Of a stretch of DNA of 5,226 nucleotides, positions 2,512 to 5,226 are shown one piece after another. The stretch is taken from the IMG/VR virus record IMGVR_UViG_2529292907_000022, one strand, 5' to 3'. Under the pieces are notes generated by a model. That model searched no databases and was not told where the DNA came from. It saw only the letters and a program-made list of their open reading frames with translations. The stretch is from a virus. Its lineage: Duplodnaviria; Heunggongvirae; Uroviricota; Caudoviricetes. The position numbers were made by a program, and so were the translations under genes. Positions within the stretch are counted from its first letter, which is position 1. The number at the start of each line of letters is the position of its first letter.

Positions 2512-3044
2512 TCATTCAGGTTGTTCGGGAAATGTTACTGGCAGGCTGGAGGTGTCTGTAGATTCGACTTTCTGCGCATAGAGCATCCACCCGGTTAATT
2601 TTTGTTTATTCTCGTCGGAAATGATGCCCAGCCGTAGCTGTGAGTCCCATAGCTGGGTTTTATCCCTGACAAGTTGCAACAGGCTTTGCTTTTCATTCTC
2701 TGCCTGCTGCCTCTGTTCCTCCTCGGTATAAGTTCGCTTTATCACTGCGCCATCTTTGAACATCCATTTACCCGAAATATCAGCACGGCGATTTGCTGTA
2801 ATATCAGGTAATTCAACGACGCTTGCGCCTTCCGGATTAATTGCTGAAACATCCTTTTCAATACAAATAATAACGCCGTTATGGTCATAGGCCATTTTCA
2901 ATGTGTCTGGCCGGAAATTCTTTTGTTCCTCATACCAGTTTTTCCATCATCTGAATAAAGCCATTTGATGTTAAATTGCTTTGTTAGCTGGTATTGCTCT
3001 TTTGTTTTAGGATTGCCAGCAGTAATGTTTTTTAAGTGCATCAT
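2512..3044 (-). pseudogene. Tail fibre assembly chaperone Tfa (Mu U-like) for the expressed fibre, split by a -1 frameshift at an A5 run
   Basis: Minus-strand ATG at 3044-3042, 2 nt after the fibre stop. The N-terminal frame [35 protein letters not shown] runs into junk and a TGA at 2898-2900. The rest, (W)[50 protein letters not shown]...FPEQPE, is in another frame (ORF 2512-2901). The break is at ggaaaaactgg (plus-strand ttttt 2939-2943); the intact paralogue at 2053-2063 has ggaaaaaactgg (A6). Confidence 0.7.
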
Positions 3045-3046
3045 GA

Positions 3047-5226
3047 TTAAATACTCCCCGCGTTATACCACGTCCCATTAATGCAATACTGAATTGGCCT
3101 TGCCTGAGTTGTATCAATTAATTCATCACGGTTTCCGTTAACTGAACCCGTAACGACATAACCTGACCTGTCAGACCAGCCGGGACCATTCCATGTCCGA
3201 ACAGATGACAGACCGCCAAGGCGAATACCTGTAATAAACCTTGAGTTACATTCTGCCTGCGTGTATGCACCAACATCTCCCGCAGAGGGTTTGCGGGTCG
3301 TGGTGTAAAACTCTGACCAGTCAGCCTCAAAACCATAACCATCACGGGCTGAACGATAAAAAATACCGCCGTTCCTGTAATTCACGCGGAACTGTACAGC
3401 AGGACAACTTCCTTCTCCCATATAAAAATGAATAATTAACGTTGATGCACCACTAATAGTTGCGTTATAAGCTCCGCTACTCCAGTTCCATCCAACTGCT
3501 TTATCATTCGCAACGGTGCTTCCTGTTTTCCCTAAGGCAAACGCACCAACATGACTTGCTTTTAATGTGATATCGGAGGAACCATCAAAAGCCACATTGC
3601 TTATTTTCCTGGCAGTTTTTAATTTTGCAGCTGTAGAAGCATTGCCGGATAGTTCACCAGAAAGGCCACTGCTGAATGTTTGTCGATTAGTCCAGGTATT
3701 CGCTGTACTGAGTAACGGTATTTTCTCCCCTCTTGTGCCGAGTTCTCGTAAACCGAGGTATTCGATAACGGCAGCAACGGTCGATTTCGCAAGAATATCC
3801 CGCCCGACTTTTGTCAGGGTTGCCAGGCTGGCGACATCATTCCCCGTAAAATACGGAAACTTGCCTGCCGCAGTAGTAAGTCCGGCCAGCGCCGTCAGGG
3901 TGGCATCTTTCGGTTGCTTACCCGCAAGCGCGTTAGTCATGGTGGTCGCAAAATTCGGGTCGTTGCCCAGCGCCGCAGCCAACTCGTTCAGCGTATTCAG
4001 TGCATCAGGTGACGAATCTACAAGGGCGGCAATCGCAGCCATAACGAAAGCCGTGCTTGCGATTTGGGTATTATTCGTTCCCTGTCGCGCAGTTGGCGTT
4101 GTTGGCGTTCCGGTCAGTGCAGGACTATTTAAGGGCGCTTTCTTGTTCGTTTCACCCATTACCGCCTTAACCGCTTTTGGCGTTGCCGCCAGTGACTCGG
4201 AAGTGCTGTTGGTCGCACTGCTGAGCTGTACTATCACCTTTTTCGTCGTGCTCGCATCCTCCAGCGCCACGGCGGATGCAATATCCTCTGCCCGTTTTGC
4301 TGCTGTCTCGGCGCGCGTTGCCGCGGATTCAGCAGCAACTTTGCTCTGAGATGCAGCCGTCGCACTGCCTGCCGCCTCTGATGCTTTCGTTGTTGCTGTC
4401 GTGGCACTACCTTTCGCTGCTGACGCTTGTCTGGTCGCCTCATCTTTTGAAGCAGACGCAGATGATGCCGATGACGCCGCTGAACTGGCTGACGATGCGG
4501 CTGCCGCCTTAGAGGAAGCAGCATTGTCTGCTGAAGTCTTTGCATTTGTTTCAGAGGTTTTTGCTGCAGAAGCAGACCTCGCTGCTGCAGTGGCTTGCTC
4601 AGTGGCTTTGCCAGCCTTCGTGTGGCTGTCGAAGCGGATGATGCGGCGCTTTCTGCCGATTTTCCGGCGGCGGTGGCACTGGCTGAGGCCTGCCCCGGCA
4701 CTTGTTGACGCGGCACTGGCAGATAATGCAGCCGCTGTTTTGAACCTGCCGCAGCTGAGGCGCTCTGTCCCGCTGCTGTTTCAGAAGACTTAGCGTTCGT
4801 CTCGGACGTTTTTGCCGCCTTCGCGGAATTTCCTGCCGCCGTTGCCGAGGAAGCTGCACTACTGGCACTTGATGATGCATTCGTTTCTGAAGATTTCGCT
4901 GCCTCTTTTGAGGCCGCCGCACCCCGTGCCGAGGTGGCAGCTTCTGACGCCTTCGTGGTCGCTGTGGATGCAGAAGTGGCTGCCGATTTTTGTGATGCTG
5001 CGGCATTCGTTTCTGACGTTTTCGCGGCACTGGCGCTGGTAGCTGCCGCGCTTTTTGATGACTCTGCAGCAGCAGCACTTTTTGCTGCTTCACGGGTCTT
5101 TGTCGATGCCGTTCCTGCGCTGGAAGACGCTGACTGAGCCGACGACGCGGCCTGTCCGGCTGACGTGCTGGCTGCACGTGCTGAGCCTGCAGCATCAGTC
5201 GCATGAGTTGCCGCCTCGCTGGCTGA
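3047..5226 (-). CDS. Side tail fibre protein (lambdoid Stf-like shaft with Mu S-like invertible C-terminus); 5' end outside window; frame disrupted around 4620-4745
   Basis: Minus-strand ORF 3047-4270 ends ...[12 protein letters not shown] with stop at 3049-3047. Its frame stays open upstream and carries the Stf-like stretch [41 protein letters not shown]...[31 protein letters not shown]. From 5226 down to about 4742 a different frame carries the repeat shaft ([26 protein letters not shown] and similar). The right crossover site lies inside the coding sequence at ...[19 protein letters not shown]. Confidence 0.85.
3327..3403 (-). repeat. Internal inverted repeat, copy B (77 bp, perfect) within the expressed fibre tip
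   Basis: Reverse complement of 3327-3403 equals 1360-1436 exactly. Both copies encode the shared core ...[28 protein letters not shown]... Confidence 0.8.
3743..3768. other. Right crossover site (26 bp), inverted relative to the left site, inside the fibre coding sequence
   Basis: ttctcgtaaaccgaggtattcgataa compared with the reverse complement of the left site ttcctgtaaaccgaggttttagataa: 22/26 identical, 12-bp core gtaaaccgaggt identical. It sits at the constant/variable boundary of the fibre (VIEYLGL). Confidence 0.8.
4280..5226 (-). repeat. Ala/Ser/Thr-rich low-complexity repeat region of the fibre shaft (degenerate [12 protein letters not shown]-type repeats)
   Basis: Hand translation gives runs such as [99 protein letters not shown]-rich GCN-codon composition leaves long spurious open frames on both strands. 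Confidence 0.7.

Follow-up and report, generated by a model that had tools for sequence, protein, structure and literature searches.

The side-tail-fibre gene (stf) of a lambdoid prophage in the Escherichia coli DEC6B draft genome contains three single-base frame changes, all of which lie close together in its repeat shaft. The changes are genuinely present in the sequence analysed here; they are a direct alignment result and not a chance pattern. Most likely, they are a sequencing or assembly artefact of the DEC6B draft consensus and not a biological feature. The evidence comes from alignment to intact homologues, from a search for the same indels in other genomes, from a second copy of the gene in the same assembly and from frameshifts of the same type in other DEC6B genes, one of them essential. 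The window, by which we mean the whole stretch of 5,226 nt that was analysed, is the terminal 5,226 bases of contig AIFW01000027.1 (76,191 bp; assembly GCA_000249615.2). The window end is the contig end, and the contig terminates within the stf shaft, 485 nt past the first of the three indels.

The fibre gene and its surroundings

Translation places the 3′ 2.18 kb of stf on the minus strand at 3047-5226, where the gene runs off the window. The encoded part comprises an Ala/Ser-rich repeat shaft, which carries a 33-nt repeat family (D1), followed by a C-terminal receptor-binding part. Directly downstream, on the minus strand at 2512-3044, is a tail-fibre assembly gene (tfa; Caudo_TAP, E = 4e-32), which completes the architecture of a lambdoid Stf; this tfa is split into open reading frames (ORFs) of 48 and 129 aa. 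A second tfa (Caudo_TAP) on the plus strand at 1955-2483 is likewise split, into ORFs of 74 and 125 aa. Beyond it, an alternative fibre C-terminus occupies 973-1953 of the plus strand and matches gp37_C (E = 2.7e-4; 21.5 bits, just below the Pfam cut-off of 22.5 bits). The window also holds a truncated gene for a resolvase-family invertase (509-715), located next to inverted sites, and a DinI-like gene (1-249).

The first-pass annotation, made from the sequence alone, had taken the gene for an Stf side tail fibre, and both the neighbouring tfa and the homologues bear this out. The top database matches of Stf after repair of its reading frame are proteins of Shigella sonnei and E. coli annotated as 'prophage tail fiber N-terminal domain-containing protein' (97-99%), and residues 42-356 of the repaired protein, in the shaft, are 99% identical to Stf of E. 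coli 042. The homologues at 97-99% bear PF08400 (phage_tail_N), and their genes are located after J-lom. The repaired 726-aa fragment itself has no match in Pfam, because its N-terminal domain falls outside the window.

The GC-rich, Ala/Ser-rich shaft (window 4230-5226) has long open stretches in the off-frames and on the opposite strand, for instance a minus-strand frame of 201 aa (4599-5204) and a plus-strand frame of 130 aa (4401-4793); several short spurious ORFs are called within the shaft in the source record. The closest Stf of S. sonnei (L060-L066, 9628-9778) comes in two forms, one gene of 925 aa or a gene of 875 aa with a 48-aa ORF behind it, which points to a polymorphic stop codon close to the C-terminus of the fibre. 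In NCTC86, RefSeq gives stf as a pseudogene fragment and a separate 'tail fiber protein' (L048, 5488-8292). This locus was considered as a second frameshifted stf and rejected; the split is an annotation quirk, since one continuous 934-codon ORF is present there.

A pair of 30-nt sites in inverted orientation (742-771 and 3743-3772; 83% complementary, with a TTCCTGTAAACCGAGG-type core), which resemble crossover sites, bracket a segment of 2,971 nt, in which the two opposed tfa genes lie together with two alternative C-termini of the fibre. The DNA matches the Mu-like phages SfMu and D108 as well as P1, with identities of 91-93%. The organization is that of an invertible host-range cassette like those inverted by Gin, Cin and Pin. 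As in the Mu G, P1 C and e14 P segments, inverted sites flank alternative fibre C-termini and opposed tfa genes beside a resolvase-family invertase gene. The difference lies in the invertase, which in the window is a truncated N-terminal resolvase remnant of 60-68 aa, so that inversion would need an invertase in trans. The cassette context has no bearing on the frameshifts in stf.

Three indels in the repeat shaft

The indels were placed by aligning the gene base by base with intact stf from E. coli 042, strain 600029, NCTC86, S. sonnei and a second DEC6B contig; with NCTC86, the seven S. sonnei loci and the DEC6B contig as comparators, the 1-nt indels are again these three and no others. On the minus strand, the first indel (4738-4741) is an A4 where all homologues have A5 (−1), and the second (4693-4696) is a G4 where all homologues have G3 (+1). 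The third (4620-4622) is a single A at 4621 in place of the AA of the homologues, by which ACAACG becomes ACACG (−1). The alignment also gives one substitution at 4630, TCG for the TCA of the homologues, which is synonymous. The second indel brings the frame back 15 codons after the first, and the three indels sum to −1. In three-frame translation of the minus strand, the path runs in frame 0 from 5226, in frame 2 for 16 residues, in frame 0 for 24 residues and finally in frame 2 (KAGKATEQ...) to the stop at 3047. As written, frame 0 carries on in the wrong register until it meets a stop at 4236-4234, and the product therefore lacks the C-terminal ~530 residues of the fibre.

The first-pass annotation had described the same alternation between two frames, and the translation reproduces its assignments exactly; the homologue alignment finds the segments that it assigned to each frame to be the conserved ones. 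Its two homopolymer junctions, at the A4 and G4 runs, are confirmed, as are the one-base loss that it had suspected near 4621-4626 and the net frameshift that would truncate the fibre. Three single-base repairs turn stf into one 726-codon ORF. The indels are also tightly clustered: under uniform placement in the 2,180-nt segment, three indels come to lie within a stretch of 120 nt with P ~0.009.

The position of two junctions on short homopolymers raises the question of recoding, by which a slippage-prone tract would allow read-through, or a phase-variable fibre, if the frame shifted on the A and G runs during translation or transcription. In its favour, long stretches of the shaft are open in each of the three minus-strand frames. 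Nevertheless, in a span of 40 codons, full-length Stf would need three separate events (−1, +1, −1). The runs, with lengths of 4, 4 and 1 nt, fall well short of the 7-9 nt or more that transcriptional slippage needs, and an X XXY YYZ heptamer is absent from all three sites. All homologues, moreover, are single-frame, with no conserved two-frame arrangement. Recoding was thus rejected on anatomy, namely the three events, the short runs and the lack of conservation, and we regard it as extremely improbable. An equally slim chance attaches to a mixed form, in which real indels would be combined with A and G runs that act as a switch; full-length Stf would then be made from a minority of transcripts, by a minority of ribosomes or in a slippage-revertant subpopulation of cells, giving a phase-variable fibre in a prophage with an invertible host-range segment.

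The indels in other genomes and the second stf copy

The indels are private to AIFW01000027.1. When window 4590-4780 (191 nt) was compared with 5,426 complete E. coli genomes, the best identity was 97.9%, which corresponds to the three indels together with one substitution; the segment is present in about 3,500 of these genomes, none of which reaches 99% or has any of the three indels. The pattern used for retrieval from IMG/VR tolerated either state at the first two indel sites, and all 45 contigs with matching flanks have the intact A5/G3/ACAACG, none being indel-bearing. The intact state was likewise found at the two E. coli loci with matching flanks and at all seven S. sonnei loci (Stf 99% identical), and a gapped pattern that accepted either state at the first two sites had no match among the GTDB representative genomes. 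Exact-product look-up of the 407-aa and 48-aa ORFs of the window returned no record, and that of the 326-aa ORF returned the source contig only. Against S. sonnei, stf of the window shows 3-nt indels at 3299 and 5066; as far as these sequences indicate, natural length variation between stf lineages is codon-sized.

DEC6B itself contains an intact paralogue. Contig AIFW01000052.1 (4,401 bp) starts at the repeat boundary at which the window ends, nt 2 of the contig corresponding to window 5226, and it carries a stf whose frame is open from nt 2 to the stop (nt 2-2182). Over the 990 nt of window 4237-5226, the sole differences between the two contigs are the three indels and the substitution at 4630, all of which fall within 118 nt. 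Clustered differences in otherwise identical sequence fit a consensus of poor local quality, such as would result if the repeat were entered by the tail ends of one or a few reads; they fit independent mutations less well.

The main rival of a technical artefact is genuine pseudogenisation. One of the two DEC6B stf copies would have gained three slippage mutations, a −1/+1 pair and then an uncompensated −1, with one more in each tfa, in a decaying prophage whose invertase is already truncated. We consider such a history unlikely, although several observations speak for it. The truncation of the pin invertase to a remnant of 60-68 aa is real, because it is common to NCTC86 and S. sonnei. The assembler kept the AIFW01000027.1 copy separate from AIFW01000052.1; two contigs held apart across a near-identical kilobase mean that some reads could really carry the differences. 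The three shaft indels lie in short runs. The nearest real analogue in biology is the stf frameshift of laboratory phage lambda, whose attribution to lambda PaPa and Ur-lambda reportedly goes back to Hendrix and Duda in 1992. Side tail fibres are dispensable and stf is readily frameshifted (PMC2762979); in a lambda selection experiment, frameshifts were found in 15 of the 19 isolates with mutated stf, and they recurred at hot spots (PMC2762979). The lambda case is similar to that of DEC6B in that, within the same gene family, a single-base frameshift parts the shaft from the receptor-binding part (orf401 and orf314 in lambda PaPa, the intact stf in Ur-lambda), and in that real frameshifts of a dispensable gene are tolerated and even selected (PMC2762979). 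The difference is that lambda has a single, experimentally verified mutation, whereas DEC6B has three within 120 nt that recur in no second sequence and conflict with the intact paralogue that the assembly also contains.

Further evidence weighs against pseudogenisation. The lesions occur in no other genome or contig examined, and no second sequence from their lineage repeats them, the comparators including no DEC6B sister strain with the same prophage. That all four differences in 990 nt should lie within 118 nt is unlike independent mutation, and for the three indels alone the probability is the low one stated above. Finally, one-base repair of the plus-strand tfa yields an intact product of 175 aa, and that of the minus-strand tfa one of 177 aa, both nearly identical to intact homologues; the three repaired genes are open throughout, at 97-99% identity to such homologues. 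Neither these genes nor stf, once repaired, contain a nonsense codon or a larger deletion as marks of relaxed selection; such changes would be expected had five frameshifts built up under neutral decay.

Homopolymer frameshifts across the assembly

Frameshifts of the same type recur in other DEC6B genes. The minus-strand tfa is split at 2939-2943 by a T5 (plus strand; A5 in gene sense) that is T6 in close homologues (−1), and the plus-strand tfa at 2173-2177 by a T5 that is T4 in close homologues (+1). On AIFW01000027.1, ~1.5 kb outside the window, A7 has become A6 at codon ~81 of aspS (L050, 2572), which is called as ORFs of 85 and 504 aa; a one-base repair gives a 590-aa AspS that is one residue off the reference. 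When 4.5 kb was aligned to a complete genome, no other gap appeared, and in a further 4 kb of housekeeping flank the genes appear intact, as judged by gene calls alone. In E. coli K-12 gene-knockout collections aspS is essential, and the aspS lesion therefore cannot be real. That a lesion of this type stands in an essential gene of the same contig is a further argument against pseudogenisation of stf. AIFW01000052.1 also has two undercalls, T6 to T5 and T7 to T6 (L067, nt 3257 and 4102), relative to a complete O111:H21 genome (99.2% identical over an aligned 3.4 kb), and each of them breaks a phage ORF, a tfa and a fibre fragment. In total, ~17.7 kb of DEC6B sequence contains eight indels; every one is a ±1 homopolymer change that breaks an ORF. 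Among the first six indels examined, five are in runs of at least 3 nt, and such runs make up 15.6% of bases.

The 74-aa tfa ORF was also found on five other contigs. A shared T5 frameshift was considered for these and rejected, the genes being cut at contig ends after codon 74. The five are short Logan/ENA contigs from unrelated samples (L051-L055) that end right past tfa codon 74, which is the convergence point of tfa copies; because the contigs end where tfa copies converge, the match is coincidental.

The pattern is that of the homopolymer miscalls of draft assemblies made with flow-based or pyrosequencing-type chemistry. The changes are ±1 in mononucleotide runs, private, and scattered over unrelated genes that include the essential, single-copy aspS, and every DEC6B lesion is removable by a single-base repair that gives an intact ORF. 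The assembly date suggests pyrosequencing-type chemistry, and the DEC6B collection was presumably sequenced by a flow-based method. Homopolymer length variation as a possible artefact is a general concern discussed in the literature (PMC4746626). From this we infer that the stf indels are of technical origin, from sequencing or assembly, and did not arise in the cell. Single-base homopolymer-length miscalls would have entered the consensus of AIFW01000027.1 at a site that would be a thinly or ambiguously covered stretch near the contig end, inside a repeat occurring at least twice in the genome. The true gene would then be a continuous, intact stf, like the AIFW01000052.1 paralogue and every homologue examined.

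Three further points count against a technical origin. The first is the indel density: the window has five in 5.2 kb and the remaining DEC6B sequence examined has three in ~12.4 kb, so that the density is higher in the window than in its flanks, which favours pseudogenisation. The second is that the shaft indels strike short runs (A5, G3 and A2), whereas the miscalls outside the window strike runs of 6-7 nt; three tightly clustered errors in runs of 2-5 nt would need a locally poor or low-coverage consensus and are not the usual long-run miscall. The third is that real replication slippage likewise favours homopolymers. An artefact of the draft consensus nevertheless remains our preferred reading. 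Sequencing error, pseudogenisation and, as less likely, slippage with some read-through had been offered as explanations in the first-pass annotation; the evidence ranks them in that order, the first being strongly favoured.

In the DEC6B draft, the splits in phage genes, and even that in an essential gene, are thus most likely consensus errors and not biology. If the frame changes are artefacts, pseudogene calls, prophage-intactness scores and host-range predictions drawn from the DEC6B assembly would be wrong. If the indels are real, stf of this prophage would be one more decayed side-tail-fibre gene, a well-known fate of a dispensable gene.
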